Part shown: positions 3,422 through 59,291 of the stretch, one piece after another | Layout of the letters: the number at the start of each line of letters is the position of its first letter | How positions within the stretch are numbered: position 1 is the stretch's first letter | Assembly: GCA_965248445.1 (NCBI GenBank) | Contig: CBDFJG010000003.1 | Location: 1,504,001-1,568,000, forward strand | Length of the DNA stretch: 64,000 bases | Origin: Planctomycetota bacterium | Lineage (GTDB): Bacteria; Planctomycetota; JAJSAM01; JAJVHW01 | Direction of reading: 5' to 3' | Translations under genes and position numbers: made by a program | Notes under the pieces: model-generated | Database searches by the model: none | Told to the model about the DNA's origin: nothing | What the model saw: only the letters and a program-made list of their open reading frames with translations

Positions 3422-3436
3422 CGAGTCCCCGGCGCG

Positions 3437-4294
3437 TCAGCCGCTGTAATCGTAGAAACCGCGGCCGCTCTTGCGGCCCAGCAATCCCGCGGCCACCATA
3501 CGGCGCAGCAGCGGGCACGGGCGGTACTTCGGGTCGCCCAGCTCGCTGTGCAGCACGTTCAGGATCGACAGGCACACGTCGAGGCCGATGAAGTCCGCGA
3601 GCTGAAGCGGACCCATCGGGTGGTTGCAGCCGAGCTTCATCACGTCGTCGATGGCCCGCTCGTTCGCAACGCCCTCCATGAGCGTGAAGCACGCCTCGTT
3701 GATCATGGGCATCAGGATGCGGTTCGCCACGAAGCCCGGATAGTCGTTCGCCTCGACGGCCGTCTTGCCGAGCGAGTCGACTGCGTCCGTAATCGTCTTC
3801 ATCGTCGCGTCGTTGGTGAGGTGGCCGCGGATGACCTCGACGAGCCGCATGAGCGGGACCGGGTTCATGAAGTGCATGCCGATGACCTGGCCGGGCCGCA
3901 AGGTGGCAGCGCCGATGGTGGTGATCGAGATCGACGACGTGTTCGACGCGAGGATCGTCTCCGTCGCGCAGATCTGATCGAGCTGGCCGAACACGGCGCG
4001 CTTGACGTTCTCGCTCTCGACGATCGCCTCGACCACGAGGTCCATGTCGGCCACCGCATCGATCGAAGTGCTCGTGCTGAGCAGTCCCTTGGCCTGCGCG
4101 ACCGCCTCGTCGGCGTCGCCGCCCTTCTTCGTCGCGATCTTGTGAATCGACTTCTCGATGCGCGCCGTCGCCTTGCCGAGGATCGCGTCGTCCTGATCGA
4201 CGAGGACGACGCTCCGGCCCGTCATCGCGAACACCTGCGCGATGCCGTTGCCCATCGTCCCGGCGCCGATCACGCCCACCTTGTCGATGCTCAT
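3437..4294 (-). CDS. hbd: 3-hydroxybutyryl-CoA dehydrogenase
   Basis: Start trimmed to [54 protein letters not shown]. Confidence 0.95.
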
Positions 4295-4361
4295 CTGTTC
4301 TCGTCTCCCCTGACTCGACAGCTGACGCTGTCGATGTGTTTGCTGCTCAGTCTTCCGCGTG

Positions 4362-5543
4362 TCAGGCCATCTCGACGGACAGCGCCACGGCGTTGCCGCC
4401 GCCGAGGCAGAGGCCGGCGACGCCGCTCTTGCCACCCGTATCCGAGAGTGCGGAGAGGAGCGTGCAGATGATGCGTGCTCCCGTCGCGCCGATCGGGTGG
4501 CCGAGCGCAACTGCCCCGCCCCAGATGTTCGTCTTCTCGGCAGGGATCGCCAGCTCGCGGCCGACGGCGATCGACGCGGCGGAGAACGGCTCGTTCAGTT
4601 CGTACAGGTCGTACGAGGACTCCTGCGTGCCGGTCTGCTGCCACAGCTTGTTGACCGCGACCACCGGGGCCATCATCACCCACTCCGGCGCCGTACCAGC
4701 CGTCGCGTAGCTCGTGATCCGCGCGATCGGGTCGATGCCGAGTTCCTTGGCCTTGTCGGCCGAGGCGACAACGACCGCGGCGGCGCCGTCGTTGATCGAC
4801 GAGGCGTTCGCAGCGGTGACCGTGCCTTCCTTGTCGAAGGCCGGGCGCAGCTTCGCGAGCCCGTCCGCGCTGGTGCCGGCGCGCGGGCCCTCGTCCCGGT
4901 CGACGACCGTGACGTTGCCCTTGCGGTCCTTCACCTCGACGGAGACGACTTCCTTGCCGAGTTTCCCGGCATCCCACGCGGCGAGTGCGCGGCGGTGGCT
5001 CTCGGCAGCGAACTCGTCCTGCGCGCGGCGGGTGATCTCGTACTTCTTCGCGACGAGTTCGCCGGTGTTGCCCATGTGGAAGTCGTTGTAGACGTCCCAC
5101 AGACCGTCATGGACCATCGCGTCGACGAGCTGCCCGTGGCCCAGACGCAGTCCGGTGCGCGCCTTGGGGATCATGTAGGGCGCGTTGCTCATCGACTCCA
5201 TGCCGCCCGCGACGATGAGGTCGGCGTCGCCCGCCTTGATGGCCTGCGCGGCGAGCATCACGGACTTCATGCCCGATCCACACACCTTGTTCACCGTGAA
5301 CGAGCCGACGGTCTCGGGGATGCCTGCGCCCATCGCGGACTGTCGCGCCGGGTTCTGACCGACACCTGCCTGCAGCACGTTGCCGAGGATGACCTCTTCG
5401 ACGAGCGCGGGATCGATCTCGCGGCGGCGCAGCGCCTCGGCCACGGCGAACGCGCCCAGCTCCGGTGCGCGGAACTTGGACAGGCCGCCCTGGAACTTGC
5501 CGATCGGCGTCCGGGCGTAGGACAGGATCACGACGTCGCGCAT
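4362..5543 (-). CDS. Acetyl-CoA C-acetyltransferase (thiolase)
   Basis: [30 protein letters not shown] motifs. Confidence 0.95.
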
Positions 5544-44724: not shown

Positions 44725-45040
44725 TCACGCGTCGCGTGAGAGCACCTCCACCCGCGCCACGTGGGCGCCGCGGCGAGCGACGCGTCGAACGTCACGAGCG
44801 GCGCGTCGAGTGCCTCCGCCAGCACGACGTAGGCGGCTTCGTACGCGGTGAGGTTGTCGCGGTACGCAAACAGCCGGTCGAGCCAACGCCGGCTCGCGTG
44901 CCGGCGGATCTGCAGCGACCCAGTAGTAGTCGAGCCCGCGCGCGTGGGACGCGCGCCGCTCGGCGCCGCTCGGCGCCGGCGCGCCGCGCTCCCCCTTTAG
45001 CGCTTCGGGATGGCGCGGCGCGACGACCAGATCGTGAGCC
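44725..45040 (-). pseudogene. Degenerate second VapC/PIN gene
   Basis: RDNLTAYEAAYVVLAEALDAPLVTFDASLAAAP with frameshifts on both sides and no 5' end. Confidence 0.7.
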
Positions 45041-45046
45041 AGATCC

Positions 45047-47527
45047 CTATTGACACGTCCTGAATCCCACGTAGGTCGTGAACTCCGCGTTGGTGTCAAC
45101 GGGAATCGAAAGAACGGACCCCGTGCCAGTCAGCGTGCCCGTGTGGAGCGGAGTGCCGTAGATGGAACGCGGATCGAACAGATCGATCGAGTCGCCTGGT
45201 TCGAGGTAGCCCGCGAAGTCGATGTCCACGGGCGAACCCGGCGCGTTCATGATCACGAGGTGGAACCGGCGCGCGTCGTACCTGTTCTGGCGAAGGATGA
45301 CCTTCGGATTCCAACCGCTCGGCCACGCCGCCCCCGAGTCGAATCCCGCACACGTATCCCCGGCTGGGTTCACATTGACGTTCCCGTGTACGAGCGTGTT
45401 GTCTTGCTGCGTGACCCCGGCGGCGGGGAAGTTGAAGATACACAGAGCGCCGTACGCGACGATGTTGTCGTGCACGACGCAATCGACGTTCGGGACGGTG
45501 AGCCCCATCTGCGTGATCTGCATGCCGATCTGCATCCCCGCCCGGGCGCCCCAGCCGGTGGGAAGCGGCCCGGTCGTCGTCCCGGTCCCGTAGCGGCCAC
45601 CGTCCTTGTAGAAGATGCTGTTCTTCACGAGCACGTTCGTCACGGGCTGTGAACCGCCAATCAGGAAGCGGCCGAACCGCTCCACGTCTGGGTTGGTGTT
45701 CAGGTAGCTGATGTGTCCGTCGATGATGTAGTTCTCGATCGGCGGGGAGTCGGTGTGGATCAGCATGCTGTAGCCCTCGTTCGCCGTCACGATGCAATCG
45801 GCGATCGTCTGACCGCCGTCACCCCGGCTGTAGATCGGAGAGGCCTCGCCTTCCGTCAGTTCGCCCTTGCGCAACTCCCATCCGGAGTCGATCTGCTGCG
45901 GAAGGTCGGCCTGGATGCCGCCGGCTCCGACCGAGATGACACTCGTGACAAACCGCTCACCGGTCGCGCGGTTACGGACCACGATGAACTCGCCTGCGTT
46001 GAACGTCGGTGTTGTCGGCAGCGTGGCATGAGCAATGCCCACGCCGCTGCCGGCGCCGTACGGCCCCCCCACCACGTCGACACCGTTGATCGTCGGCGGG
46101 TCGTCCTCGATCGCCTGGACACTCGTGTGGCCGATGTCGTGGATGATGCAGCCGTAGACCATGGTGTCCGTCACCGGGTCGTTCGCCAGTGATTGGAATC
46201 CCTGGTAGCTGTCGTGGATGTGCGTGTTGATGCACCGGCAGCCGTGCGCCTCGAGGAAGTGGAATCCGCCCGGCGGACGGTTCATGGTCCGCACGTCCGC
46301 GACCCCCGGTGGCGGCCGTGGCGTGGTGGTCATGATCTCCAGGTCCCAGAACCACACGTATTGTGACGCCGACGTGAGACCAGTAGCCAGGCTCAGCGAG
46401 CCGTCGATGCGCGCCCGCAGCGGCCGCATGCCCGCATCTCGGAACGCGCGCACGTGGATCGGACTCCCCGCGGCCCCGACCAGTCCGACGAGGTAGCCCC
46501 CATCCCAGCGCGCGTAGCCCGTCGACTTGTAGGTCCTGTTGCTGGGCGAACCCGGGAGGAGCCACACCGTGTCTCCCGGTCCGACGCCCTGATCCCCGCG
46601 CATCGTCGATTTCAGGTCCCACGGGCGGCTTCGCGTGCGCCCGTTGTTCCCCGACACGCCGTCGGGCGACACGTACCACCACTGCCGCTTGACGATCAGG
46701 TCGCCGACGCGCAACTTGGTCGAGGAGGTGCCGAAGAACACGTGGCTGTTCGCACTGGTCAGGTACGGCGCGACCGTGGTCACATCGACGTCGACCGTGT
46801 GCGCTGGCGCGAAGGTCTCGTGCCAACTACCGCCCCACGCGCTGTCGAGGTCGAACCGGAGCGCATGTCCCTGCTTCCGCATCGAGAGCCAGTACCGACC
46901 GGGCGCGGCGGCCGCGATGACCGGAGACGTGGCCGAGTAGACGGACGCGCCCGTCGAGTCGCGGGACTCGATTTCCACGATGAACGCCTGGATGGTCTGC
47001 GCCAGCGGCGGGGGGATCACGAGCCGGAAGCAGTGCACGCGTACGAACACCGAAGAGGCGGGCTCGTTCGCGTACGCCGACCCTCCGGGCTCTCCCTTCC
47101 CGACACCGAAGTGCAGAAGGGCGTGCGGGTCGAGTATCGCCGACGTGTCGAACGTGAGCTGAGCGGTGAAGTCCTCGCCGTTGTAGTCCGCGTACGTCGT
47201 CCGCATGTAGTGCTTGTCGTCGACGCCCGTGGACGTCGCGAGCGCGACGGTCTCGCCGCCGACCACGAACGCTCCGTCCGGGTCCTCCACGTTCTCGTGC
47301 AGGTAGTCGCACTCGAACGGCTCCACGAAGTAACGCGTGCCCTCTCCAGGCGATGCAGCAGGCATCGTGAGCACACTGTCGCTGTCGAGTGTCCCCACGG
47401 TTCCTGCAGCACCACTCACAGGCGGTGCAGTCGTCGTGGTCGGCGGGCCGGAGGGGGCCGCAGCACACATCGGGGCCAGCAGCATTGCAACGACAACAAG
47501 GCCCCAACGAACGGATCGATTCAGCAT
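45047..47527 (-). CDS. Large secreted protein with right-handed beta-helix (pectate-lyase-like) domain
   Basis: Signal peptide; WYVSPDGVSGNNG..PW..PGDTVWL, IHDSYQG, GCIIHDIG, NSIFY. Confidence 0.75.
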   Translation of the reverse strand: MLNRSVRWGLVVVAMLLAPMCAAAPSGPPTTTTAPPVSGAAGTVGTLDSDSVLTMPAASPGEGTRYFVEPFECDYLHENVEDPDGAFVVGGETVALATSTGVDDKHYMRTTYADYNGEDFTAQLTFDTSAILDPHALLHFGVGKGEPGGSAYANEPASSVFVRVHCFRLVIPPPLAQTIQAFIVEIESRDSTGASVYSATSPVIAAAAPGRYWLSMRKQGHALRFDLDSAWGGSWHETFAPAHTVDVDVTTVAPYLTSANSHVFFGTSSTKLRVGDLIVKRQWWYVSPDGVSGNNGRTRSRPWDLKSTMRGDQGVGPGDTVWLLPGSPSNRTYKSTGYARWDGGYLVGLVGAAGSPIHVRAFRDAGMRPLRARIDGSLSLATGLTSASQYVWFWDLEIMTTTPRPPPGVADVRTMNRPPGGFHFLEAHGCRCINTHIHDSYQGFQSLANDPVTDTMVYGCIIHDIGHTSVQAIEDDPPTINGVDVVGGPYGAGSGVGIAHATLPTTPTFNAGEFIVVRNRATGERFVTSVISVGAGGIQADLPQQIDSGWELRKGELTEGEASPIYSRGDGGQTIADCIVTANEGYSMLIHTDSPPIENYIIDGHISYLNTNPDVERFGRFLIGGSQPVTNVLVKNSIFYKDGGRYGTGTTTGPLPTGWGARAGMQIGMQITQMGLTVPNVDCVVHDNIVAYGALCIFNFPAAGVTQQDNTLVHGNVNVNPAGDTCAGFDSGAAWPSGWNPKVILRQNRYDARRFHLVIMNAPGSPVDIDFAGYLEPGDSIDLFDPRSIYGTPLHTGTLTGTGSVLSIPVDTNAEFTTYVGFRTCQ

Positions 47528-47769
47528 CGCACCCTCCCCGCTGATATGTCTCACCCGGTGACATGTTCGCGGGTCAGTCAGTCGCGATGCAACACGCGCT
47601 TACTACGAGTGAGCGCTCCCCATATCGAGACGTTCGTCAGGTTCGAAGTGTGAGCAACTGCCACCGGAACGCGTTGCAGAGTGGTTCCCTTCGCATACGA
47701 GCAAGCACTTGCGACAGCGTCCGACGCGAGCCTCGCGCCAGTCTCCTGCACCACACCCACGCCGCAAGC

Positions 47770-48147
47770 GGAACATGGTGAAGGCGACGGGCTGAACGCA
47801 GGCGGCGACGGCAGCCCCATCGAGCGCTGCAACGTCTCTCGCGTGCATGGGAACGGGATTCAGAGCAACGGCGCCGGGAATGCCGTGCGCCGCTGCAAGA
47901 TCAACGGCACCGGTTCGCGCGGCATCCAGACAGCGGACGACGACAGCGGCGCTGAGCGCTGCGTGGTGATCGACGTGGGACAGCTCTCCGTCGCGGACTC
48001 GAACGTCGAGAACGGCATCGACGTGGTGCGGCCGGGAAGCCACGTCATCAGGTGCAAGATCATCACGCCCGCGAACCATGGGATCAACGTGCGCGGACCG
48101 GGCATCGACGTCGACCGCTGCAAGATCACGCGTCCCGGCGGACGCGG
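47770..48147 (+). pseudogene. Internal fragment of a parallel beta-helix gene, truncated at the IS66 end
   Basis: ERCNVSRVHGNGI..RRCKINGTGSRGI..RCKIITPANHGI..RCKITRPGGR, then the IS terminus. Confidence 0.65.
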
Positions 48148-49679
48148 GTACCCGTTCAGGGTATGACGATCCGCGGCCTCAGCGCGTGATCGGGAGCGCG
48201 ACGAGAGCCGGCGGCGAGCGGTTGTGCGCGAGTGCCGCGCTGACGTCTGCGAGGTAATCGAAGACGCTCTCGCCACGCTGGCGGAGCGTGGCGGTGACGG
48301 TCAGGATGCGCTCGACGAAGCGGAGTCCGCGCTCGCTCTGACTTCCGTGCGTTGCGCGTCTCCACAGGACCGGCTTGCGCACCGCGCGCTCAGCGGCGTT
48401 GTTCGTCGGGGAGACGCCAGGGACGTCGGCGAAGGTCCACAGAGCCTCCGCTCGGTCGAGCAGATGCCGAGTCGTTCCGCGTACTCGGCGGTGCTTGCTG
48501 TCTGCGCCGCGCACGAGCAGCGTCAGGAGTCGGTCCCATGTGAGACGCAGCTCACGCCGCATGCGGTCGCGGTCCCCGTGCTCGCCGAAGTGACGCTGAG
48601 CTCGCATGACAGCCTGGGCGAGACGCACGGCCTGCTTGCCGAAGCGCCGGCCGCCGCGCGAGCCCTCGGCCAGCGCTCGAAAGTCCCTCTCGAGATGCGC
48701 CCAGCAGATCTGGCGGCGCTCGGTGGGATGCTGGTCGTAAGCGCCCATACGGTCGGTCACGAGGACGCCCCTGAAGCGCTTGCCCACGAGTCGCCGCATG
48801 GCCTTGGCGCTCCTGCGCCGATCGATACGATGGACCGTGGCGTGCTCACAGACCGCGCTCCACAGCCAATGCAGCGTGCCACGACGCGACCACGGTGTCT
48901 CGTCTACATAGGCGACGCTGCTCGTGCGTACGGCCCCGAGGGCCTCGATGTGCGCTGAGGAGATGGCTCCCGACACCCGCTCCTCGATCGCACTGACCGT
49001 GCCCGGTGACATCGAGACGCCGATGACGTCACGCAACAGACGACTGGTCTCGCGCCGCGACAGGCGGAAGACGCCGACCAGAGCCGCGGTGAGCGCACAG
49101 AGTCGCGGGCCGAAGGGACTCGCCGTCACACCGCTTGGCAGCGAGGCAGTGGACGTGGCGCCACAGTCCGTGCACCGTGCCCGGTGCAACCGGTGCTCGG
49201 TCACCTGGATCAGCCGTGGCGGGACCTCGAAGACCTGCTGGCGTGTCGGGGCGCGATCGATCGGGACGAGCACGTCGCTCCCACACGCGCTGCACTCGCG
49301 CGGGCGGTGGTCCTCTACGCCATCGACCTCGGACTCGTCCACGAGCTTGCGCGTCGCCCCTTTGTGGCCGGGCTGCGCACCCTGGCGCTTGTCCGACGGC
49401 GGCTTGCGCCGCCGCCGCTTCTTGGACCACGACGGATCCGAGGACGGTGGGCGCGAGGAGGTGCGGGAGTCCCGGCGAAGACGGCTCTCGAGATCGTCGA
49501 TCCGTGCCGCCTGCCGCTCGATCACCTCCGCCTGCTCGGCAATCGTCTCGTCCCGAGCGTCCAGACGACGGGTCAGGCGCTCGACCAGATCACGCAGCTC
49601 ATCGGTGCCCACATCCGATTCATCGACCGAACGGAAAGCGATCTGGATCCGAGCTCAGAACCAAGGGCTGAACGGGTAC
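48148..49679 (-). mobile_element. IS66-family insertion sequence (single-ORF, ISBst12-like), copy 1
   Basis: Terminal inverted repeats gtacccgttcag...ctgaacgggtac; 1532 bp. Confidence 0.92.
48179..49612 (-). CDS. IS66 family transposase
   Basis: DSRTSSRPPSSD, GAQPGHKG, CxxC pairs, VDETPW, TDRMGAY, QICWAHL, PTNNAAERAVR. Confidence 0.95.
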   Translation of the reverse strand: MGTDELRDLVERLTRRLDARDETIAEQAEVIERQAARIDDLESRLRRDSRTSSRPPSSDPSWSKKRRRRKPPSDKRQGAQPGHKGATRKLVDESEVDGVEDHRPRECSACGSDVLVPIDRAPTRQQVFEVPPRLIQVTEHRLHRARCTDCGATSTASLPSGVTASPFGPRLCALTAALVGVFRLSRRETSRLLRDVIGVSMSPGTVSAIEERVSGAISSAHIEALGAVRTSSVAYVDETPWSRRGTLHWLWSAVCEHATVHRIDRRRSAKAMRRLVGKRFRGVLVTDRMGAYDQHPTERRQICWAHLERDFRALAEGSRGGRRFGKQAVRLAQAVMRAQRHFGEHGDRDRMRRELRLTWDRLLTLLVRGADSKHRRVRGTTRHLLDRAEALWTFADVPGVSPTNNAAERAVRKPVLWRRATHGSQSERGLRFVERILTVTATLRQRGESVFDYLADVSAALAHNRSPPALVALPITR

Positions 49680-49840
49680 GCGCGCCTGACGGGTGGTCCT
49701 TCGCTATTCGCGGCCCAAACTGTCGTCCGTGCCTGACGAAAGCGGTGGTTCGCTGCCGACGATCGTCTGTCGCGAGGGCCGGGAGCCCGCATCGTTCACG
49801 AGGCTTGCGCGGCAGGAGCGGACCCCGTGAACCATGCGGG

Positions 49841-50950
49841 CTAGCGGGCTGCGACGACGGTGCCGCGACGGACGCCCGGAGTGGCCCGGAACGCGAACCC
49901 GCGCGGGAAGTGCGCGCCCGGGCAGGCCGTCTCGCGGAACTCGTTGTGCAGGCGGAGGTTCTGAGGCGGAATGCCGCAGTAGGCCGCCAGGAACCCGCAC
50001 AGCCGCTCGAGTGCGCGCATCTGAGGAGCGGTCGGGCTGCTCTTCGAGAAGTCACCCACCAGGCAGATCCCGATGCCGTGCTGATTCATCAGGTCGTTGC
50101 CCGCGTGCGCCCCGTCGCGCTGCTGCGTCCACCGGAATCCGGTCTCCACGCGCCCATCCGGCGACCCCGACCCGTTGCCGATCACGAAGTCGTATCCGAG
50201 TCCGTCCCAGCCCTTCTTGCGATGCGCCTCGTCGAACGAGGCGGCGCTGCCGCGGGCGGTCGCGCTGTGATGAACCACGACGTACGTCCATCGGCGGCGA
50301 AGCGACGCGCTCCACTGCGCCCGTTCCACAGGCGTCGGGGAGTTCGCTGCCGCGGGCACCGGAGCCACCGGCGGCGGCCGCCGGCGTGTGACGACAGGAG
50401 GCGGTAGCCGGAAGTCGTGGTTCGGTGTCGTCGGCGTGTATCGCGGTGACGGGGCGTAGCCGGGAGTTGGCGTGTAGATGCGCGGAGCATGCACGACGGG
50501 CGTCGCTTGACCGGCGGTGGCGCCCCAGGCGCGTCGCACCCGCGACGCGTCGCTCGGATCGACCCACGCGGTGCCCTCGGCGACCATGACGGGGAACGTG
50601 GTCGAGAGCCGCGTGCCGCGGACGGTGACCTGAGTGCTCCCCGGGAACAGGGCGATCCGGCCACCGCGCGGCCCCTGGAGCACGATCCGCCCGGAGCTCT
50701 CTTGCGGCAGCTCGTGGAGCCCGAGCGGTCTCGAAATGTCCGCGACCGGGACATAGCCCCCGGGCACCGCTGTCGCCGTGTTGGTCGACGCGCACCCCGC
50801 TGTCAGCAGGAGCCCAGCTGTCAGCAGGAGCCCAGCTGTCAGCAGGAGCCCAGCTGTCAGCAGAGACCCGGCTGCCAGGGGAAGCCCCGCTCCCAGGGGA
50901 AGCCCGGATGCCTGACCGGCGTCGCGTGTTGCTCTCAACGCTCGGATCAC
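49841..50950 (-). CDS. N-acetylmuramoyl-L-alanine amidase (Amidase_2/PGRP family) lipoprotein; start uncertain
   Basis: WTYVVVHHSAT, GWDGLGYDFVIGNG, GAHAG, GIGICLVGDF, LH..TACPG; lipobox LTAGC. Confidence 0.88.
   Translation of the reverse strand: MIRALRATRDAGQASGLPLGAGLPLAAGSLLTAGLLLTAGLLLTAGLLLTAGCASTNTATAVPGGYVPVADISRPLGLHELPQESSGRIVLQGPRGGRIALFPGSTQVTVRGTRLSTTFPVMVAEGTAWVDPSDASRVRRAWGATAGQATPVVHAPRIYTPTPGYAPSPRYTPTTPNHDFRLPPPVVTRRRPPPVAPVPAAANSPTPVERAQWSASLRRRWTYVVVHHSATARGSAASFDEAHRKKGWDGLGYDFVIGNGSGSPDGRVETGFRWTQQRDGAHAGNDLMNQHGIGICLVGDFSKSSPTAPQMRALERLCGFLAAYCGIPPQNLRLHNEFRETACPGAHFPRGFAFRATPGVRRGTVVAAR
50799..50906. repeat. 18-bp in-frame tandem repeat in the amidase signal peptide
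   Basis: gctgtcagcaggagccca x3 exact plus 3 degenerate units (LLLTAG/LPLAAG). Confidence 0.9.
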
Positions 50951-51535
50951 GCGCGCTCCCCTCGAAGACCGGCCACGGCTTCCGGGGCCCACTTCATGGA
51001 TCGACCAACGGGCCGCGCGCATGCAACCACCCTGCAGAGGGCCAGACGGAGAACTGCGCGGAGAGGCGGCCGACGGGCGGTCCTCAAACACACCCGACCG
51101 TCGACCTGCCTGATCGTCACACCCTGCGTCCATCGGCGCACGGCTCCGTCAGATGCCGCGGAACGCGAGGCGACGACGACCGGCCGCGCGAGCGTCTCCG
51201 GACCACGACATCTTGTGGACCGATGGACAACGAGCGCCATTCTTGGTGGGTTCAGCCTCTCCGTCAAGGCAGTTCGTCGGATTCGCCGTCCGTGGGCAAT
51301 CGTGTTCTCCACGTCTGTGGAATGTCGATTTCCGCAGAAAGATTCACCGTCGCCCACGCGCTCGGCAGCGACGGGTCGCGGAGCGGGCGTCGCGCGGCTC
51401 GCCGACGTCTCCACCGCCGCGTCGCGGTCGCAACGACCGACCGCACCGATGCTTGCGTTCTCGCGCTGCCGACTCTCCACATTCCACCGTCTCTCCCGGG
51501 CTCCTGTGGAGGCCGATGTGGACGCATTTTCGCCG

Positions 51536-51564
51536 TTGAAACCCAACGCCGCCGGTCCTAGCTT
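51536..51564 (+). promoter_or_regulatory. Sigma70-like promoter for the candidate ncRNA
   Basis: TTGAAA (51536-41), 17-bp spacer, TAGCTT (51559-64); predicted start near 51570-71 coincides with the 5' strand of the closing helix. Confidence 0.6.
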
Positions 51565-51570
51565 CTCCCT

Positions 51571-52640
51571 CGGTCGGACGCGGTAGGCGACATCGTTGAC
51601 CTGCGCGCCGAATAGCTCTTTGAGATCTCGGTGGCAACGGAAGGAAGGGCACCAAGACGCGGTTCGCCGCGACGAGGTGTCGGTGGGGACTTCGGTCCTC
51701 GAACACTTCCGGAACCGCGTGGTGTGCCGGCATCGCGCGGAATGCATCGGGAGGCGCCTGAGGCGTCTCGGCGATGCGCAGAGAAACCCCAGGGGAGTCG
51801 CGGATCTCATCGAGAACCGCACGTCACCCTGTCGGACAGACCCTGTGACAACGGCCCGAGGGGCGCAGTTCGCTGCGTGACACGGGTGGAATTGTGCGAG
51901 GGGGATACGGCGGGTCCCGGCCCGTCTGCGACAGATGATGGACTTCGAAGGGGAACCCCGATACGGCGAGAAAGCTGCACTTAACGGGTGTGGCGGAACC
52001 GCTGGGCAATGTGAACGGAGGGCGCCGAAGCAAACGGCGATCGGCCTCGTGAAGCCTCAGACTTCGAGACTGGTCGCAACCAACACGGCGTACCGGAGCA
52101 ACGGTCGGCGAGAGCTGCCCGGACTGCAACGGACACACGGCCCCACAAGGTACGGGGCGAGGAAACCCCACGAGTGGCGATGGTCGTCGACGACCGTCAA
52201 GTGACAGGGGAGTAAACCGTCGAGGAGGGAAAGAACCTCGAGGACGGAACGTGCCGGGTGAGGCAAACCCGGGTTAAGCGGACCCTGCCGCCCACGCCGC
52301 TGGAGGGGCAATGAACCCCAGGAGGGGAAGTGAGGATCACCGTAATGATCCACACCGGCGGTAAGGCAAGACCCTGAGCGGGCAGCCAAGCCTGAGGGAG
52401 ACGTCCACGTGGCAACACGAGGACCGGTCGCCCGACTGAAGACCCCACGGTCGTGTCACTCGGCACGACGAAGCAGGTCGCCGCAAACCAATACGCGGCT
52501 AGGTTGAGCGAAGAGGAACTCCGAGAGGCGGCGAAACCCTGAGAGGTGTCGGTCCTGAGACGGCAACGTCCCAAGACACAATTCCCTACCGACCGCAAAC
52601 CCCTGAAGAGGCAAACACGAATAGCCACCGCGTTCGACCA
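51571..52640 (+). ncRNA. Candidate large structured non-coding RNA (~1070 nt), class unrecognised
   Basis: No credible ORF; 51572-51588 pairs with 52624-52639; UUCG/GNRA hairpins; recurring AACCCYGAGAGG-like motif; promoter upstream and strong hairpin downstream. Confidence 0.7.
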
Positions 52641-52648
52641 CCCGGCAG

Positions 52649-52682
52649 CACGGCCCGCGCACCAATCGGTGCGCGGGCCGTG
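52649..52682 (+). terminator. Terminator-like hairpin
   Basis: cacggcccgcgcacc-aatc-ggtgcgcgggccgtg, perfect 15-bp stem; no clear U-tract. Confidence 0.65.
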
Positions 52683-52690
52683 GTCGATTC

Positions 52691-52731
52691 GTAACCGTTC
52701 ACCCCTTGACAGCGTGTGAGCCTCAGCGTGC
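52691..52731 (-). mobile_element. 41-bp end remnant of a related IS66 element
   Basis: gtaaccgttca..tgac..gcctcagcg aligns with the IS end gtacccgttca..tgac..gcctcagcg. Confidence 0.6.
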
Positions 52732-54263
52732 GTACCCGTTCAGGGTATGACGATCCGCGGCCTCAGCGCGTGATCGGGAGCGCGACGAGAGCCGGCGGCG
52801 AGCGGTTGTGCGCGAGTGCCGCGCTGACGTCTGCGAGGTAATCGAAGACGCTCTCGCCACGCTGGCGGAGCGTGGCGGTGACGGTCAGGATGCGCTCGAC
52901 GAAGCGGAGTCCGCGCTCGCTCTGACTTCCGTGCGTTGCGCGTCTCCACAGGACCGGCTTGCGCACCGCGCGCTCAGCGGCGTTGTTCGTCGGGGAGACG
53001 CCAGGGACGTCGGCGAAGGTCCACAGAGCCTCCGCTCGGTCGAGCAGATGCCGAGTCGTTCCGCGTACTCGGCGGTGCTTGCTGTCTGCGCCGCGCACGA
53101 GCAGCGTCAGGAGTCGGTCCCATGTGAGACGCAGCTCACGCCGCATGCGGTCGCGGTCCCCGTGCTCGCCGAAGTGACGCTGAGCTCGCATGACAGCCTG
53201 GGCGAGACGCACGGCCTGCTTGCCGAAGCGCCGGCCGCCGCGCGAGCCCTCGGCCAGCGCTCGAAAGTCCCTCTCGAGATGCGCCCAGCAGATCTGGCGG
53301 CGCTCGGTGGGATGCTGGTCGTAAGCGCCCATACGGTCGGTCACGAGGACGCCCCTGAAGCGCTTGCCCACGAGTCGCCGCATGGCCTTGGCGCTCCTGC
53401 GCCGATCGATACGATGGACCGTGGCGTGCTCACAGACCGCGCTCCACAGCCAATGCAGCGTGCCACGACGCGACCACGGTGTCTCGTCTACATAGGCGAC
53501 GCTGCTCGTGCGTACGGCCCCGAGGGCCTCGATGTGCGCTGAGGAGATGGCTCCCGACACCCGCTCCTCGATCGCACTGACCGTGCCCGGTGACATCGAG
53601 ACGCCGATGACGTCACGCAACAGACGACTGGTCTCGCGCCGCGACAGGCGGAAGACGCCGACCAGAGCCGCGGTGAGCGCACAGAGTCGCGGGCCGAAGG
53701 GACTCGCCGTCACACCGCTTGGCAGCGAGGCAGTGGACGTGGCGCCACAGTCCGTGCACCGTGCCCGGTGCAACCGGTGCTCGGTCACCTGGATCAGCCG
53801 TGGCGGGACCTCGAAGACCTGCTGGCGTGTCGGGGCGCGATCGATCGGGACGAGCACGTCGCTCCCACACGCGCTGCACTCGCGCGGGCGGTGGTCCTCT
53901 ACGCCATCGACCTCGGACTCGTCCACGAGCTTGCGCGTCGCCCCTTTGTGGCCGGGCTGCGCACCCTGGCGCTTGTCCGACGGCGGCTTGCGCCGCCGCC
54001 GCTTCTTGGACCACGACGGATCCGAGGACGGTGGGCGCGAGGAGGTGCGGGAGTCCCGGCGAAGACGGCTCTCGAGATCGTCGATCCGTGCCGCCTGCCG
54101 CTCGATCACCTCCGCCTGCTCGGCAATCGTCTCGTCCCGAGCGTCCAGACGACGGGTCAGGCGCTCGACCAGATCACGCAGCTCATCGGTGCCCACATCC
54201 GATTCATCGACCGAACGGAAAGCGATCTGGATCCGAGCTCAGAACCAAGGGCTGAACGGGTAC
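52732..54263 (-). mobile_element. IS66-family insertion sequence, copy 2 (direct repeat of copy 1, offset 4584 bp)
   Basis: Same inverted repeats and identical transposase translation. Confidence 0.92.
52763..54196 (-). CDS. IS66 family transposase
   Basis: Identical protein to 48179-49612. Confidence 0.95.
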   Translation of the reverse strand: MGTDELRDLVERLTRRLDARDETIAEQAEVIERQAARIDDLESRLRRDSRTSSRPPSSDPSWSKKRRRRKPPSDKRQGAQPGHKGATRKLVDESEVDGVEDHRPRECSACGSDVLVPIDRAPTRQQVFEVPPRLIQVTEHRLHRARCTDCGATSTASLPSGVTASPFGPRLCALTAALVGVFRLSRRETSRLLRDVIGVSMSPGTVSAIEERVSGAISSAHIEALGAVRTSSVAYVDETPWSRRGTLHWLWSAVCEHATVHRIDRRRSAKAMRRLVGKRFRGVLVTDRMGAYDQHPTERRQICWAHLERDFRALAEGSRGGRRFGKQAVRLAQAVMRAQRHFGEHGDRDRMRRELRLTWDRLLTLLVRGADSKHRRVRGTTRHLLDRAEALWTFADVPGVSPTNNAAERAVRKPVLWRRATHGSQSERGLRFVERILTVTATLRQRGESVFDYLADVSAALAHNRSPPALVALPITR

Positions 54264-54303
54264 CCTGCAAGTGCCCCCGCGGGCCACCGGGATTCCCGGA
54301 CGG

Positions 54304-56148
54304 TCAATTCGCGTGGATCGCTCCCCACATGAACGGACGGAACAGCGAGTACGCGTCGAGGCCCGACAGCAGCGGCTCCGGCACGCCGGGGCGGCGCAGG
54401 CCGCTGCCGGCGACGTTCAGCAGGAAGACGTCCGGGAGTCCGTCGGGGAAGACCTCGTCGACGGACACCGCGAGCGTGAATCGGAACTCCGAGTCGTTGG
54501 CGTGCCCGCCGTACCGCAGCCCGCCGAGGCCGCCGCGAGGCGAACCTCCGTCCAGATGGACGCGGCGCGGGCGGATCTTGCCCTCTTCGGTGCCTGTGAG
54601 CGCGAGCTGGAAGTCGCCGTCGCCGACCCTCAGGTTCTGCTCCTCGCCGATGACGATGATCACCGCGGTCCCGAGTCCCCCGGTCGCCGACGACGGGAAG
54701 AACGAGTCCTCGAGGTAGAAACGGCCGTCGAAAAACAGCTGATCGTCCGAGACGCCGAAGCGCAGGAACTCACCGCTCTTGGCGTTCTTGATCGGCATCT
54801 CGGCAAGCAGCTCCATCGGCGGCATCTTGGCTTGCAGCGCCTCCTTCGTCAGCGGAACGCGCTTCAGGTTTGCGGACGTGCGCGGGGGCAGCCACCAGTA
54901 CTCCGCGACCCACATCACCTGCTCGATCTGATACACGTCGCGCTGCTCGTTCGTGAAGACCAGAGTCTCGCCGGCGAATGCGAGCGCCTCGTTCTGCCGC
55001 GCGTGTAGCGCGAAGCCGCCCATCGGTTCGCCGTCCAGGCGATCACTCGGGTAGAGCAGCAACTCCGCATAGGTCATGACGGCGATCGTCAGTCCGTCAG
55101 CACTGATGTCCGCAGCCGTCACCTGCTCGCGGTCGCCGATGGAGAGGTTGCCGACAAGCTGTCCCATGTTGCGCTCACCGACCGGCAGCACCGACGCGTC
55201 GACGAGGTCAGTAAACGCGAACACCGGAGAGCCGTCTTCGCCGCGGTTCTTCACGATCAGGTGGACGACGCCCCCGATCACCACGGCGGCCTCGACGTCG
55301 TGCGGACCGTCGGGGTATGCGATCGGGTACGTCGCCACCAGCTCGAGGCCGCTGACGGCCGCGCGCACGCGGTAGAGCGTCGGGTCGTTGCGTTGGCGCA
55401 GATTGTCGCCGACGTCGCAGATGAGCAGGTCGCCGTCGATTACGGCGAGGTCCTCCCAGTCGACGGCCTCGGCCCCGGGGACGGTCAGCTTCTGCGCACC
55501 CGCGAAAGACGGTACGCTGCTGCGATAGACGTACGGACCGTCACCGCTGTCGTTCACGGTCCAGTAGTCGCCATGCAAGTACGCGAGACCGCTGTTCTCT
55601 CGGATCTCCGGGTGCTCGATGCACGCGACCGGCGTGAGCCGTGCGGCGCCCGGGCCGAGTTGCGAGAGCGAGTCCTCGCCCGTCGAAGCGATCCCCGGCT
55701 GGTAGGACGGCTCCGGGGCGTACGTTCCCGCCGCCGGGTCGACCACCGGCTGCGCGGCGATCTCCGGCGTCCCCGCCGATCCACCCGATTCGAGTGGCAG
55801 ACGTGGCTCGAGCTCACCGGGGAGTTCGACAGCCGTGCCGGCCTCCGGCCAGTCCTCCTCGAGTCCGTACGCGCCGGCCGTCGCGTCGGCCGGTTCCGCA
55901 ACCTCGTACCCGACCGAAGCCGACGCGCCCGACGACGCTCCGCCGCGACCGCGCATCGACATCGCTTCTTCGACGGGGATCAGGTCGATGTCCGGCGAGT
56001 CGTAGAACGGGTGCGAGCTCGTGCCCGACGGTGTGCTCCGCGCCGGACCCGAGCGCGATGAACGGGGCGAGTCGCAACCCGAGAGCAGCGGCAAGCCGGC
56101 CAGCGCGGCGAGTGCGAGCAGAGTGATGCAGCAAGATGACGAGGGCAC
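54304..56148 (-). CDS. Lipoprotein with beta-propeller (phytase/SdiA-regulated-like) domain
   Basis: Lipobox LSGC, low-complexity linker, ENSGL..TVNDSGD..DWEDL..DVGDN..HDVEA..QNEA. Confidence 0.75.
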   Translation of the reverse strand: MPSSSCCITLLALAALAGLPLLSGCDSPRSSRSGPARSTPSGTSSHPFYDSPDIDLIPVEEAMSMRGRGGASSGASASVGYEVAEPADATAGAYGLEEDWPEAGTAVELPGELEPRLPLESGGSAGTPEIAAQPVVDPAAGTYAPEPSYQPGIASTGEDSLSQLGPGAARLTPVACIEHPEIRENSGLAYLHGDYWTVNDSGDGPYVYRSSVPSFAGAQKLTVPGAEAVDWEDLAVIDGDLLICDVGDNLRQRNDPTLYRVRAAVSGLELVATYPIAYPDGPHDVEAAVVIGGVVHLIVKNRGEDGSPVFAFTDLVDASVLPVGERNMGQLVGNLSIGDREQVTAADISADGLTIAVMTYAELLLYPSDRLDGEPMGGFALHARQNEALAFAGETLVFTNEQRDVYQIEQVMWVAEYWWLPPRTSANLKRVPLTKEALQAKMPPMELLAEMPIKNAKSGEFLRFGVSDDQLFFDGRFYLEDSFFPSSATGGLGTAVIIVIGEEQNLRVGDGDFQLALTGTEEGKIRPRRVHLDGGSPRGGLGGLRYGGHANDSEFRFTLAVSVDEVFPDGLPDVFLLNVAGSGLRRPGVPEPLLSGLDAYSLFRPFMWGAIHAN

Positions 56149-56331
56149 GGGCAGTCTCCAGGGATACCGGCCCGCCACTCCTTCGACTTCCTGGGGGGCG
56201 CCGGGACCCACGTTCTACCCGCCCCGCGGGGCGCCTGTCCCGTCCCGGCGCCCCGCGCATCCAGGGGCTCGGGGGAGGCTTCGCGTGCGCGGGCGGGCCG
56301 GCTCGCGAAGCCTGCGGGGTAGGTTGTGCCG

Positions 56332-57012
56332 ATGATCGAGCCCGAGTTCGTCCCCCACGCCGACCGCTACCTCCCTCCGGACCCGCCCGGGCGGGCCGCG
56401 CGCGCGTTCGCCGAGGCGATGAGCCGGCGGCGCAGCGTGCGCCAATTCTCCGACCGGCCGGTGGCCCGCGAGACGATCGAGGAGATCGTGCGCGCCGCGG
56501 CGTGGGCGCCCAGCGGTGCCAACAAGCAGCCGTGGCGGTTCGTCTGCGTCAGCGACCCTGGACAGAAGCACCGCATCCGGATGGCCGTCGAGCAGGCCGA
56601 GCGGGAGTTCTACGCCGAGCGCGCGAGTGAGGCGTGGCTGCGGGACCTCGCTCCACTCGGGACGGACGCCGACAAGCGCTACCTCGAGGTCGCGCCTTGG
56701 CTGATCGTCGTGTTTCGCATGACGAAGACCGACGCCGGCGGACAGGTGTACTACGGCGACGAGTCGGTGGGCATCGCCGTCGGCATGCTCCTCACCGCCG
56801 CGCACATGGCGGGGCTCGCGACGCTCACACACACGCCGGCGCCGATGAAGATCCTCGCCGAGGTTCTCGGACGGCCTGCTCACGAACGGGCCTACATGCT
56901 CATCCCGGTCGGACACGCCGCGGACGACTGCGCCGTCCCGAAACACGCGTTGACGCGCCGCCCGTTCGAAGACGTCGCCGTGTTCGTGGAACCGTCCTCG
57001 CGCAGCACCTGA
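56332..57012 (+). CDS. Nitroreductase family protein, iodotyrosine deiodinase-like
   Basis: RRRSVRQFS, APSGANKQPW, EREFY, DADKRYLE, YYGDESVGIA, TLTHTP. Confidence 0.85.
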   Translation: MIEPEFVPHADRYLPPDPPGRAARAFAEAMSRRRSVRQFSDRPVARETIEEIVRAAAWAPSGANKQPWRFVCVSDPGQKHRIRMAVEQAEREFYAERASEAWLRDLAPLGTDADKRYLEVAPWLIVVFRMTKTDAGGQVYYGDESVGIAVGMLLTAAHMAGLATLTHTPAPMKILAEVLGRPAHERAYMLIPVGHAADDCAVPKHALTRRPFEDVAVFVEPSSRST

Positions 57013-57014
57013 GA

Positions 57015-57110
57015 CTCGGCACCCGAGATTCGGGCCTGACAGCCGGCATCCGACAGAGTCGGCACCGCGTACTTGGCATCGGGTAGTCGGCACCGCGTAG
57101 TTGGCACCAC
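57015..57110. repeat. Imperfect 14-nt-period tandem repeat between convergent genes
   Basis: tcggcaccgcgtac-ttggcatcgggtag-tcggcaccgcgtag-ttggcaccac, with more degenerate cggca units upstream. Confidence 0.65.
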
Positions 57111-57117
57111 TGAGACG

Positions 57118-57852
57118 TCACCGGCAAGACAGGCCCAGCGCGTCGCAGAGGAACCGGAGGTAGGGCGCTCCCGACTCGAACGCCTCCACCGCCTGGTCGA
57201 CGAAATCGGGTCGGGCGACGTCCGCCAGGCGCACGCGAGCCTCTGCGCGGAAGTCCTTCCGCCGCAGGTCCGTCGCAAACGGGTGATCCGCGTCGTAGCC
57301 CGCGGGGACGCGGCGGAGCTCAGGCGGTCCCAGGACTCCCGAGGTCGCGGCGCCGAACGTGCTGACGAACTGCTCGTTCTCTGTCGCAGCGGCCCAGCGC
57401 CGCCGATGCTCGTCGATGTGACGGCGGATGCGGCGCAAGGTGACGGGACCGCGAGGGCGGACCCCGACTCCCAAGTGCACGGCGTCGGGACGCACGCGCA
57501 GCCAGAACCCCGGGGCGGTCGCCCGCTCCTCGTCCTCGTGCGGGAAGCTGAGGAACACGCGCGTGTGATACGGCCGGCGGTCGGCACTGAAGCGAATGTC
57601 GCGGTGCATTCGGAGCATGGAACCGCCGGTGCGGGATGCGTCGATGACCAGGCGCGGGCAGATCCTCAGGACATGCGGACGGATCGCACGAGTGAAGGCG
57701 AGCGCGGGCTCGCGCACCTCCGACTCGAAGCGGTCCTGCTGCGAGTGAAACCAATCCCTGTCGTTGTTCGCCTGCAACTCCTTCAGGAACTTGCGCAGGC
57801 CCGGCCGGAACCCCGTGAAGTCGGGCTCCGCCCTTGCTTGAGAGATTGGCAC
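57118..57852 (-). CDS. DUF2461 family protein
   Basis: FLKELQANNDRDWF, RMHRDIRFSADRRPY, LRRVPAGYDADHP..DLRRKDF. Confidence 0.88.
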   Translation of the reverse strand: MPISQARAEPDFTGFRPGLRKFLKELQANNDRDWFHSQQDRFESEVREPALAFTRAIRPHVLRICPRLVIDASRTGGSMLRMHRDIRFSADRRPYHTRVFLSFPHEDEERATAPGFWLRVRPDAVHLGVGVRPRGPVTLRRIRRHIDEHRRRWAAATENEQFVSTFGAATSGVLGPPELRRVPAGYDADHPFATDLRRKDFRAEARVRLADVARPDFVDQAVEAFESGAPYLRFLCDALGLSCR

Positions 57853-57971
57853 GAGAGGGTCCTCCGAATGACTGATTCGGAGAGAGAGGACGGTGCTCGG
57901 CAAGCGGCGGTCACATGCGGTTCGGCGTTTTTCGCGGCAGGCGTCGCCCACGCACCGCAGACTCTCTCTCG

Positions 57972-59291
57972 ATGTCCCGGTCGCGTCCCGCCACCGCCCT
58001 CCTCGTGATCGTCCTCGCGGCGGCGATGGCTCCCCTCGCGCGCGCGGAGCAGATCGTGGAGACGGACGACGACGGCAACGTCATCCTCAAGTACTCCGTC
58101 GACGACGACGGCCTGTCTCACGGCGCATACCACGAGTTCTTCCCCGGTGGGAAGCGCACGAAACAACGCACGATGTTCAAGCACGGCGTGCGCCACGGCG
58201 ACATGGTCACCTACCACCCGAACGGCAAACTGCGGGTGAAGACCCGCTACAAGGACGGCAAGCCGGACGGCCCCTTCGTCGAACGCGACGACGACGGCCG
58301 CGACACGTATCGCGCGAACTACGCCGCCGGGCTGCGCGACGGGGAGTTCGTCCGGCTGAAAGAGGGGCGCGTCGTCGAGACGCAGGTCTGGGACGAGGAC
58401 ATGATCGTGTCGATCAACGGCGCGGTCGTCCATCCCCGCACACGCGACGAGATCGCCCGCGAGATCGAAGACGCATTCTCGACGAACGATCCTCTCGAGA
58501 AGGTCGAGGGCGACGAGAAGGCGAAGGCCCGCGGGGAGAGTCTGCGGCGGCTCAAGGCGTTCCGCGCGGTCGTGGGCGTGCCGTGGCGGGAAATGCGGCT
58601 CGACGCGCGCATGAATGCGCACGGAGACGCGGGGGCAGCGCTCTGCGAGCGCATCGGCCGGCTGGACCACACGCCCGCGAACCCCGGGATGCCCGAGGAG
58701 AAGTACAAGTTCGGATACACCGGCACGAGCAACTCGAACCTGTACGTCGGCCCGCCGGAGACGCCGATGATCTCGTCCGTGCGGGCGTACATGGACGACT
58801 CCGATCCGTCGAACATCGCGAAGGTCGGCCACCGGCGCTGGTGCATCAATCCGCGCATGCTGAAGACCGGCTTCGGTTCGTCCGGCCGCTACTCCGCCAT
58901 GTGGTCGATGGATCAGTCGAACCGGACGGTCAGCGGCCACGACACCGTCTCGTACCCGCCGGGCGGATACGCGCCGACCGAGTACTTCGCCGCGACGTAC
59001 GCGTGGAGCGTGGGGTTCCGCGCACGGGACTTCGCAGCGCCGGGCTCCGGTGGCGTGAAGATCGAGGTCGTCGCCGTCGACGAGGAGTACCAGGCCACGG
59101 GTGAACCGCTCGGACTCGAGGCGGTCGTCGTCGCGAAGGGCGGCACCGGAGACCGGTTCTGCGTGATCTTTCGCCCCCTCGGTCTCGACGTGAGCGACGG
59201 CGCACGGTATCGGGCCACGATCGAGGGCGTGACGCGCGGAGGCGATCCCTACACGCACCGCTACTTCGTGCATTTCTTCGACCTCTTGTAG
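57972..59291 (+). CDS. Secreted protein: MORN-variant repeats plus CAP (SCP) domain
   Basis: HGxYxEFFPGG/YHPNGKL/YKDGKPDG repeats; LDHTP..SNL..YMDDSD..GHRRWCINP..GFG. Confidence 0.8.
   Translation: MSRSRPATALLVIVLAAAMAPLARAEQIVETDDDGNVILKYSVDDDGLSHGAYHEFFPGGKRTKQRTMFKHGVRHGDMVTYHPNGKLRVKTRYKDGKPDGPFVERDDDGRDTYRANYAAGLRDGEFVRLKEGRVVETQVWDEDMIVSINGAVVHPRTRDEIAREIEDAFSTNDPLEKVEGDEKAKARGESLRRLKAFRAVVGVPWREMRLDARMNAHGDAGAALCERIGRLDHTPANPGMPEEKYKFGYTGTSNSNLYVGPPETPMISSVRAYMDDSDPSNIAKVGHRRWCINPRMLKTGFGSSGRYSAMWSMDQSNRTVSGHDTVSYPPGGYAPTEYFAATYAWSVGFRARDFAAPGSGGVKIEVVAVDEEYQATGEPLGLEAVVVAKGGTGDRFCVIFRPLGLDVSDGARYRATIEGVTRGGDPYTHRYFVHFFDLL

Follow-up and report, generated by a model that had tools for sequence, protein, structure and literature searches.

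A candidate for an undescribed class of large bacterial RNA, built from three paralogous domains, in Planctomycetota

A 64,000-nucleotide (nt) stretch of a Planctomycetota genome (contig CBDFJG010000003.1, positions 1,504,001 to 1,568,000; called here the window and numbered from its first letter) contains a region, 51536-52690, that sits between an amidase gene and one of two copies of an IS66-family insertion sequence (IS). Does this region encode a large RNA in its own right, and if so, what kind of RNA is it and how might it act? The initial annotation, made from the letters alone, had proposed a large structured RNA of unrecognized class; Rfam, covariation, coding, and RNA-library checks were all favorable to that proposal. 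We are highly confident that the region specifies a real structured, expressed noncoding RNA (ncRNA) of an undescribed family. The RNA gene runs from 51572 to ~52645 on the plus strand and is single copy in its own genome according to BLAST and model searches. The RNA body consists of three tandem paralogous domains (D1, D2, and D3), of ~160 to 195 nt each, held within a 16-bp closing helix. The domain triplication refines the initial annotation and is new here.

Covarying structure, coding potential, and known RNA families

By BLAST, all seven of the other family genomes have a full-length homologue (62 to 66% identity), and partial homologues occur in the order. The ten helices described in the initial annotation (73 pairs) were 85.7% paired in the family alignment, compared with 35 to 42% when the partners were slid, and 0 of 500 shuffles reached the observed values. 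A consensus structure with 35 helices and 158 pairs was then obtained with RNAalifold from an alignment of 26 sequences, which represent at least nine families. Over the 26 sequences these pairs were 84.8% paired, compared with 69.0% for shuffled alignments (0 of 500 reached the observed value) and 39 to 47% with the 3′ partners slid by 1 to 3 columns; 133 of the 158 pairs changed on both sides (76 to 85 when slid), and the covariation score was 0.473 (0.10 to 0.13 when slid), a comparison in which the structure is favored by its derivation from the same alignment, although the margin is still very large. Covariation had been named at the outset as a check on the prediction, and in both alignments homologues exist and covary strongly.

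The 16-bp helix predicted to join the two ends of the molecule was present in full, with 13 of 13 pairs between 51572-51584 and 52627-52639 and 3 of 3 pairs between 51586-51588 and 52624-52626. It was supported by covariation: over seven family members, 79% of cells were paired, and 7 of the 16 pairs changed on both sides. Other families carry a closing helix of different sequence at the equivalent place, formed in the second family by GGCAAGGGCGC with GUGCCCUUGC; this search is reliable for the class, and alignment columns are poor for distant rows (G128a and G097). The predicted internal helices fared unevenly. Those at 51744-51777, 52254-52272 (ccgggt/acccgg; 100% paired and invariant within the family, and covarying phylum-wide as helix 20), 52408-52419 (cgtg-GCAA-cacg; 96% paired in the family, with all four pairs changed on both sides), and 52559-52570 (gacg-GCAA-cgtc; 93% paired in the family) were strongly paired, while the hairpin at 51657-51720 and the UUCG hairpin inside it were weak. 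Loops of the GNRA type are numerous (GCAA, GCGA, and GAGA). Single-sequence folding gave z scores of −3.45 for D2 and −2.93 for the 3′ third, and the fold energy of the whole element was −487.4 kcal/mol for the plus strand and −445.9 kcal/mol for the minus strand.

No coding signal was found. When sequences of the seven-member family alignment were compared with the window, few indel runs had a length divisible by three (3 of 26 to 11 of 40), and substitution rates were flat over the three codon phases (e.g., 0.374/0.377/0.368). Long stop-free frames lie mainly on the pyrimidine-rich minus strand; they are not conserved, and indels break every frame. The plus strand of the RNA is purine rich, with AT skew up to +0.47 and GC skew up to +0.14. 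The description of the locus as a purine-rich strand without a gene was thus confirmed, and neither indels nor substitutions followed a three-base pattern.

A cmscan search of the whole 64-kb window against Rfam 15 (4,227 families) gave no match at gathering score, and the same was true of six homologous loci. A permissive scan of 51000-53000 (E ≤ 10) gave 12 weak matches, all of which fell well short of their gathering scores. Those within the element were microRNA models on a 15-bp hairpin that follows the closing helix (16.6 to 21.8 bits, against gathering scores of 61 to 268); the RNA body itself had none, in agreement with the proposal of an unrecognized class. There was no match to the Rfam models for OLE, GOLLD, ROOL, raiA, HEARO, or group II intron domains. 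The housekeeping RNAs map elsewhere in the genome: RNase P RNA (RF00010) at G000:C4:1443622-1444029 (259 bits), tmRNA (RF00023) at C3:734517-734879 (169.5 bits), 6S RNA (RF00013) at C3:111833-112012 (50.4 bits), and signal recognition particle (SRP) RNA (RF00169) at C3:956959-957056 (46.3 bits). By these model comparisons, the RNA forms a family of its own, related in sequence and structure to none in Rfam 15. No description of it was found in the full-text literature searched, which included 2026 preprints and the accessible text of Breaker-lab surveys, with supplements and most subscription journals outside its scope; all that turned up there was "Rhodopirellula-1," listed as a candidate motif that has no Rfam accession.

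Three paralogous domains in one RNA

Two covariance models were used to follow the RNA. R1 represents the most conserved 168 positions, and R2 was built from 28 diverse cores. R1 gave an unexpected second match region within several RNAs. In one relative (L055), the second match (1730-1888; 43 bits, E = 6.2e-11) aligned to the core helix for helix. When R2 was run on 26 loci, it gave 54 matches, comprising the 26 cores and 28 further matches. All of the latter were on the core strand, inside the same RNA, and either ~55 nt downstream (D3) or ~190 to 380 nt upstream (D1) of the core. In the shared plan, purine-rich internal loops interrupt a CCCC/GGGG closing stem, which is followed by a hairpin, an inner stem, and then another two hairpins; the motif that recurs at the domain boundary varies by row (CAGGAG, CAUGAG, CACGAG, or CAAGAG). 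A genome search found no stand-alone copies of the domain elsewhere, including 5′ leaders; its one match at E ≤ 1 was the RNA itself.

The central domain, D2, is the most conserved. Its helices (13 to 20) were 88 to 99% paired, except helix 16 (68%), with 2 to 5 pairs in each changed on both sides. The minimum free energy fold of the single sequence reproduced the covariation-supported fold of D2, and its unpaired junction nucleotides are strongly conserved, some of them invariant. In D1, the helices 51787-51790/51950-51953, 51794-51798/51942-51946, and 51841-51844/51899-51902 covary; those of the D1-D2 linker (10 to 12) were more weakly supported (73 to 79% paired). The long-range helices that enclose D3 (21 and 22) were 94% and 92% paired, with four pairs in each changed on both sides. 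A local CCCC-AGGA-GGGG hairpin at 52316-52327, which had been built into R1, was superseded by this long-range pairing with 52600-52611. Within D3, helices 24 to 33 (52372-52375/52544-52548 through 52480-52485/52494-52499) covary. R1 matched D3 of the window only weakly (52438-52549, E = 0.093); at an equal offset in relatives, D3 was found in L055, with the second match described above, and in the family members L008, L010, L007, and L009.

Transcript, distribution, and genomic setting

A promoter of the form TTGAAA-17-TAGCTT had been proposed upstream of the RNA. Both hexamers are present, and most homologues have TTGAC/TTGAA and TAnnnT at equal spacing in the alignments. A simple consensus promoter scan called no promoter-like site, because TAGCTT fits only three of six consensus positions.

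Public sequencing runs were searched with 31-mers of the element. Of the 24 runs listed, 17 are RNA libraries (15 studies), and most of these are marine or other sediment metatranscriptomes, some of just 8 to 30 million letters. Contigs of four sediment metatranscriptomes (four studies) were placed on 51300-52900 at ≥85% identity. In all four runs, contig cover was confined to bins 51570-52649 and was zero on the flanks and on the 15-bp hairpin. Summed word depth of these assembled contigs, a guide to presence and extent, rose to 1.06 million in one bin of run X5 (1,363 contigs) and was 10,448 in run X6. The assembled contigs therefore cover the predicted transcript only, as expected for an independently transcribed RNA of ~1.1 kb. 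Contigs of this RNA are numerous yet unannotated in public sediment metatranscriptomes, and one, fused to a phage genome, is part of a public viral collection.

That contig (L077, IMGVR_UViG_3300043814_000185; 5,294 nt) was the sole match in IMG/VR. It joins the RNA (~1-1045) head to tail to a complete levivirus-like single-stranded RNA phage genome, with genes for Phage_mat-A (1412-2701), a small open reading frame (ORF; 2745-3218), and RNA_replicase_B, the replicase beta chain (3424-5247). The RNA part is 91% identical to the copy in G004 and has a GC content of 0.63 to 0.67, compared with 0.46 to 0.49 for the phage part; the change, from ~0.65 to ~0.48, falls at the joint. The contig begins ~10 nt inside the RNA, and similarity to the RNA ends 5 to 6 nt past the closing helix, before the hairpin. 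Since two RNAs are joined end to end, L077 probably arose as a chimera of two abundant RNAs. Less likely, it is a genuine recombinant, which would hint at the host of the phage.

The perfect 15-bp hairpin predicted to follow the closing helix was found at 52649-52682, with its pairing in the family (89.5%) kept by compensatory changes at 9 of its 15 pairs. It has no U-tract, and a terminator scan found no terminator-like site. The stable RNA seems to end at ~52645, upstream of this hairpin, because the RNA contigs and the RNA similarity of the chimeric contig both stop before it; the lack of contig cover on the flanks and hairpin was weighed only jointly with the chimeric junction. The hairpin and the TCGATTC that follows it are apparently a terminator or processing signal outside the stable RNA. 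TCGATTC is a T-loop-like sequence, conserved in the family right after a hairpin of variable sequence and in the place of a U-tract (A1 columns ~1527-1535). It prompted consideration of a tRNA-like 3′ end, for which ARAGORN found nothing, and no tRNA or tmRNA was found by ARAGORN within 45000-58000 of the window. In f53 genomes (L057, L058, L059, and L062), a conserved element, CCCUCACUGUCCGACGCGG...CCGCGUCA, lies 3′ of the RNA and is followed in most loci by a U-run; in contrast to the hairpin of the window family, this is a canonical GC-hairpin terminator, and a conserved box lies upstream of it.

R1 found exactly one copy of the RNA in 16 of 17 species genomes of the class, including 8 of 8 high-quality ones; the sole genome without a match is in 780 contigs with 7% contamination. 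In an even sample of the phylum, R1 matched 19 of 151 genomes. With R2, 23 of the 151 sampled Planctomycetota genomes (≥90% completeness) were positive, from approximately ten families (f24, 4 of 4; f28, 3 of 4; and four f53 genomes among them), and some large genomes had two copies. No R2 match was found among the genomes searched of f6 (0 of 8), f15 (0 of 8), f35 (0 of 8), and f25 (0 of 5). The RNA is thus near-universal and single copy in its class and present in approximately ten families of the phylum.

In seven of the class genomes checked (G005, G006, G007, G002, G012, G016, and G010), a PTS_EIIA_2 (PtsN-like) gene lies directly downstream of the RNA on the same strand, and in the family a bpMoxR ATPase gene comes after it. 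Outside the class, the genes downstream of the RNA are unrelated and encode an aminotransferase, a Ser/Thr kinase, or a trypsin-like peptidase. In the genome of the window itself, the PTS_EIIA_2 and bpMoxR/AAA_5 ATPase genes are on contig C1 (G000:C1:235338-238739; L002 and L042), away from the intact RNA gene. Beside them is a second copy of 52645-52732 of the window, made up of the hairpin and 42 nt more and interrupted by an insert of 1,458 bp. The relocation of these genes is an IS-linked rearrangement, and the 88-bp duplication is unexplained by simple IS recombination. Here the amidase gene and the RNA gene are bracketed by the two IS66-family copies, an arrangement that resembles a composite element. 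The N-terminal part of the amidase-like protein (50750-50915, minus-strand ORF) has a tandem peptide repeat, with LLTAG occurring ~5 times, that precedes a lipobox-like Cys. On the other side, 54304-56211 (minus strand) holds an ORF of 635 amino acids without a Pfam match. The features of the locus are listed in Table 1.

Table 1. Features of the RNA locus and its flanks, in window coordinates
Feature	Position	Strand	Evidence or remark
IS66-family elements, 100% identical, 1,532 bp each, same orientation	48148-49679 and 52732-54263		DDE_Tnp_IS66, zf-IS66, DUF6444
N-acetylmuramoyl-L-alanine amidase gene	49841-51133	minus, divergent from RNA	Amidase_2 match
Promoter-like −35 TTGAAA (51536-51541), 17-nt spacer, −10 TAGCTT (51559-51564)	51536-51564	plus	Sequence; hexamers kept in homologues
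Stable RNA, ~1,070 nt, ends approximate	51572-52645	plus	RNA-library contig cover; junction of chimeric contig; single copy
Closing helix, 5′ strand	51572-51588	plus	16 pairs with 52624-52639
Variable 5′ hairpin, acgcggttc/gaaccgcgt enclosing UUCG hairpin	51657-51720	plus	Perfect in window; 60-76% paired and length-variable in family
14-bp hairpin with internal loop, conserved	51744-51777	plus	96-98% paired in seven family members
D1, core-domain paralogue	51782-51969	plus	Full-length R2 match, 21.6 bits, E = 6.9e-4
D1-D2 linker with conserved CCUCAGA element	51970-52160	plus	CCTCAGAG conserved in many rows of 26-sequence alignment
D2, most conserved core: closing stem, hairpin, inner stem, two hairpins	52161-52329	plus	R1, 168 bits; R2, 152.6 bits
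Long-range helices, 5′ strands	52316-52327	plus	Pair with 52600-52611, enclosing D3
D3, core paralogue, bounds approximate	52366-52550	plus	Weak R1 match in window; clear in relatives; helices covary
Hairpin with GCAA/GCGA tetraloop	52552-52577	plus	Helix 34; all 10 pairs changed on both sides; 79% paired in 26-sequence alignment and 93% in family
Long-range helices, 3′ strands	52600-52611	plus	Pair with 52316-52327
Closing helix, 3′ strand	52624-52639	plus	Pairs with 51572-51588
15-bp hairpin (52649-52682), then conserved TCGATTC (52684-52690)	52649-52690	plus	Pairing kept in family; no U-tract; no RNA contig cover

Possible modes of action and comparison with known RNAs

In descriptive terms, the RNA is a large orphan structured bacterial ncRNA: it is longer than 500 nt and noncoding, its helices covary, it has its own promoter-like hexamers, and RNA cover is confined to it. 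We favor a model in which it acts in trans as a multi-site scaffold. The conserved junctions and loops would form identical surfaces on the three like domains, and several copies of a single partner, in all likelihood a protein, would bind there to give an abundant ribonucleoprotein (RNP) that holds or sequesters this partner. Action in trans is suggested because the downstream genes differ outside the class. A scaffold is preferred because an abundant trans-acting RNA with three like domains and conserved junctions most simply offers three equivalent surfaces. Taken whole, the statement that this is a stand-alone, abundant, stable, trans-acting RNA of an undescribed family, with three domains acting as a multi-site scaffold, falls somewhat short of an even chance, and the scaffold mechanism alone is put forward tentatively.

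Several observations weigh against this interpretation or limit it. No partner was found among the candidates checked, and binding is a prediction. The repeated domains are equally well compatible with an RNA-only pseudo-symmetric fold or a tandem-aptamer sensor. The boundary motif may be purely structural, because it varies (CAGGAG, CAUGAG, or CACGAG). D3 of the window itself was not detected by R1 or R2 at E ≤ 0.01, and D1 was marginal (E = 6.9e-4). The metatranscriptome contigs are assembled, and many come from relatives; they speak to presence and extent, not to strand, exact ends, or true level. Finally, the RNA may have been described in subscription journals or supplements outside the search.

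The partners checked include CsrA, for which the RNA might have been a sponge. CsrA (PF02599) was found in 61 of the 151 genomes but in just 1 (G030) of the 23 RNA carriers; among RNA-bearing families the counts were 0 of 4 for f1, 0 of 2 for f2, 0 of 2 for f3, 0 of 4 for f24, and 0 of 4 for f28. In addition, the recurring motif is not a conserved GGA, and its CCCC/GGGG flanks pair over long range (helices 13 and 21). CsrA and the RNA are nearly mutually exclusive (CsrA in 1 of 23 carriers versus 60 of 128 noncarriers), in a sample whose relatives are not independent, and some families (f6 and f88) have 7 to 17 CsrA copies per genome. A Ro/Y-RNA type of partnership was likewise rejected, as PF05731 (TROVE) was found in eight of the 151 genomes and, in the 23 carriers, gave just one weak match (G201). 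The neighboring bpMoxR/AAA ATPase was rejected because it is not codistributed with the RNA; an orthologue (E ≤ 1e-60) was found in just 6 of 151 genomes (the genome of the window, 4 of 4 in f1, and one in another family).

The alternative that survives best requires no stoichiometric protein: the three domains would pack with pseudo-threefold symmetry, or the RNA would self-assemble in the manner of GOLLD, ROOL, and OLE. The size and ornateness of the RNA (35 helices and 158 pairs), its many GNRA-type loops, the conserved unpaired junction nucleotides of D2, and the internal triplication are all consistent with such an assembly, as is the precedent that GOLLD, ROOL, and OLE form homo-oligomers, according to the available text of PMC12286853. 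Against it, GOLLD and ROOL are often linked to prophages or tRNAs, as far as the accessible text of PMC5737381 covers them, whereas this RNA is encoded by a single-copy chromosomal gene with stable synteny in the class. We regard an RNA-only assembly as possible, though unlikely.

It is improbable that the RNA is a large ribozyme with an active site made up of conserved junctions in the core domain. The invariant unpaired nucleotides of D2 and the high abundance of the RNA would fit catalysis, but the RNA resembles no Rfam ribozyme family, it shows no evident substrate, cleavage site, or splice junction, and whole-domain triplication is, to our knowledge, unusual among ribozymes. A general argument in favor is that large bacterial RNAs with complex folds are thought especially likely to be catalytic (PMC5737381, accessible text).

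Each domain might instead be an aptamer for a metabolite or ion, with the RNA buffering or reporting its ligand. Tandem aptamers are known in riboswitches, and three copies of a compact multi-helix domain with conserved junctions would suit such a sensor. However, the domain occurs nowhere else in the genome, 5′ leaders included (the single match at E ≤ 1), a conserved regulated gene downstream is absent outside the class, and there is no match to an Rfam riboswitch. We consider this reading quite improbable.

A role in cis, as the leader or a processed 5′ part of the mRNA for the PTS-EIIA-like (PtsN-like) protein, would account for the position of PTS_EIIA_2 directly downstream on the same strand in the seven class genomes and for the absence of a U-tract from the hairpin between the two. 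However, the genome of the window keeps the RNA intact with its PTS_EIIA_2 gene on contig C1, the downstream genes are unrelated outside the class, and RNA contigs stop before the hairpin. This very unlikely role is largely refuted by the missing synteny outside the class. That the region is not an RNA gene at all, being instead coding or pseudogenized sequence, a mobile part bounded by IS66, or a divergent housekeeping RNA, is scarcely credible and is refuted as far as sequence analysis goes: there are long frames free of stops, most of them on the minus strand, and the amidase gene and the RNA lie between identical IS66-family copies, but indels break every frame, codon periodicity is absent, homologues in the other genomes examined are not flanked by this IS66 element (BLAST of L002 and of the IS against the window placed the IS only at 48148-49679 and 52732-54263) and carry other genes on their flanks, and each of the four housekeeping RNAs (RNase P, tmRNA, 6S, and SRP) is encoded elsewhere.

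Returning to the scaffold and the RNA-only assembly together, we put at roughly even odds the broader proposition that this is an undescribed class of ~1.07 to 1.3 kb, the largest structured bacterial RNA apart from ribosomal and intron RNAs, and a pseudo-threefold machine (an RNP core or RNA only, possibly catalytic) that is core to and extremely abundant in several lineages of sediment-dwelling Planctomycetota. Only rRNAs, GOLLD, and group II introns are said to exceed ROOL, at 581 nt, in length and complexity (PMC5737381, accessible text). An RNA of ~1,070 nt would top the list of large complex bacterial RNAs. Such RNAs are rare, and the few known have repeatedly given unexpected biochemistry or architecture. 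The threefold domain repeat offers a built-in handle for structural work and for a search for binding partners domain by domain.

Among known RNAs, GOLLD is comparable: it is also an orphan ncRNA of bacteria, very large and ornate, whose fold contains many multistem junctions, and it was found through conservation and is abundant in environmental data. GOLLD is ~800 nt long; the RNA described here is longer (~1,070 nt), has three paralogous domains, and is not matched by the GOLLD model. GOLLD is also often found near tRNAs and in prophages (PMC5737381, accessible text), while this RNA is single copy, chromosomal, and restricted to Planctomycetota lineages. The mobile or prophage context of the GOLLD and ROOL type was not seen here: there was one copy in 16 of 17 class genomes and no tRNA in 45000-58000, and the IMG/VR match resembles a chimera. 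ROOL averages 581 nt, occurs in three phyla, and is often associated with prophages (same source). It too is a large orphan RNA whose structure includes multistem junctions and in which few nucleotides are invariant; it differs in its taxa, in having about half the length of this RNA, and in giving no model match here, and the triplication belongs to this RNA.

OLE is likewise a large, highly expressed, chromosomal orphan RNA limited to one bacterial lineage. It is ~600 nt long, occurs in Firmicutes, and acts with protein partners whose genes are adjacent; the OLE model gave no match here, and around this RNA there is no codistributed partner gene. The CsrB/RsmZ sponges and 6S RNA resemble the favored scaffold as abundant trans-acting RNAs with repeated or mimic sites that hold a protein. 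For 6S RNA, the genome encodes a normal copy elsewhere. With respect to CsrB/RsmZ, CsrA was not found in 22 of 23 carriers, the motif here is not a conserved GGA, and the repeat unit is a multi-helix domain of ~165 nt rather than a short hairpin. Tandem glycine riboswitch aptamers are tandem-domain RNAs of another kind. An expression platform or regulated gene is absent here, as is any Rfam riboswitch match; what the two have in common is that an entire folded domain is duplicated in a single transcript, and in this RNA there are three copies, each much larger.

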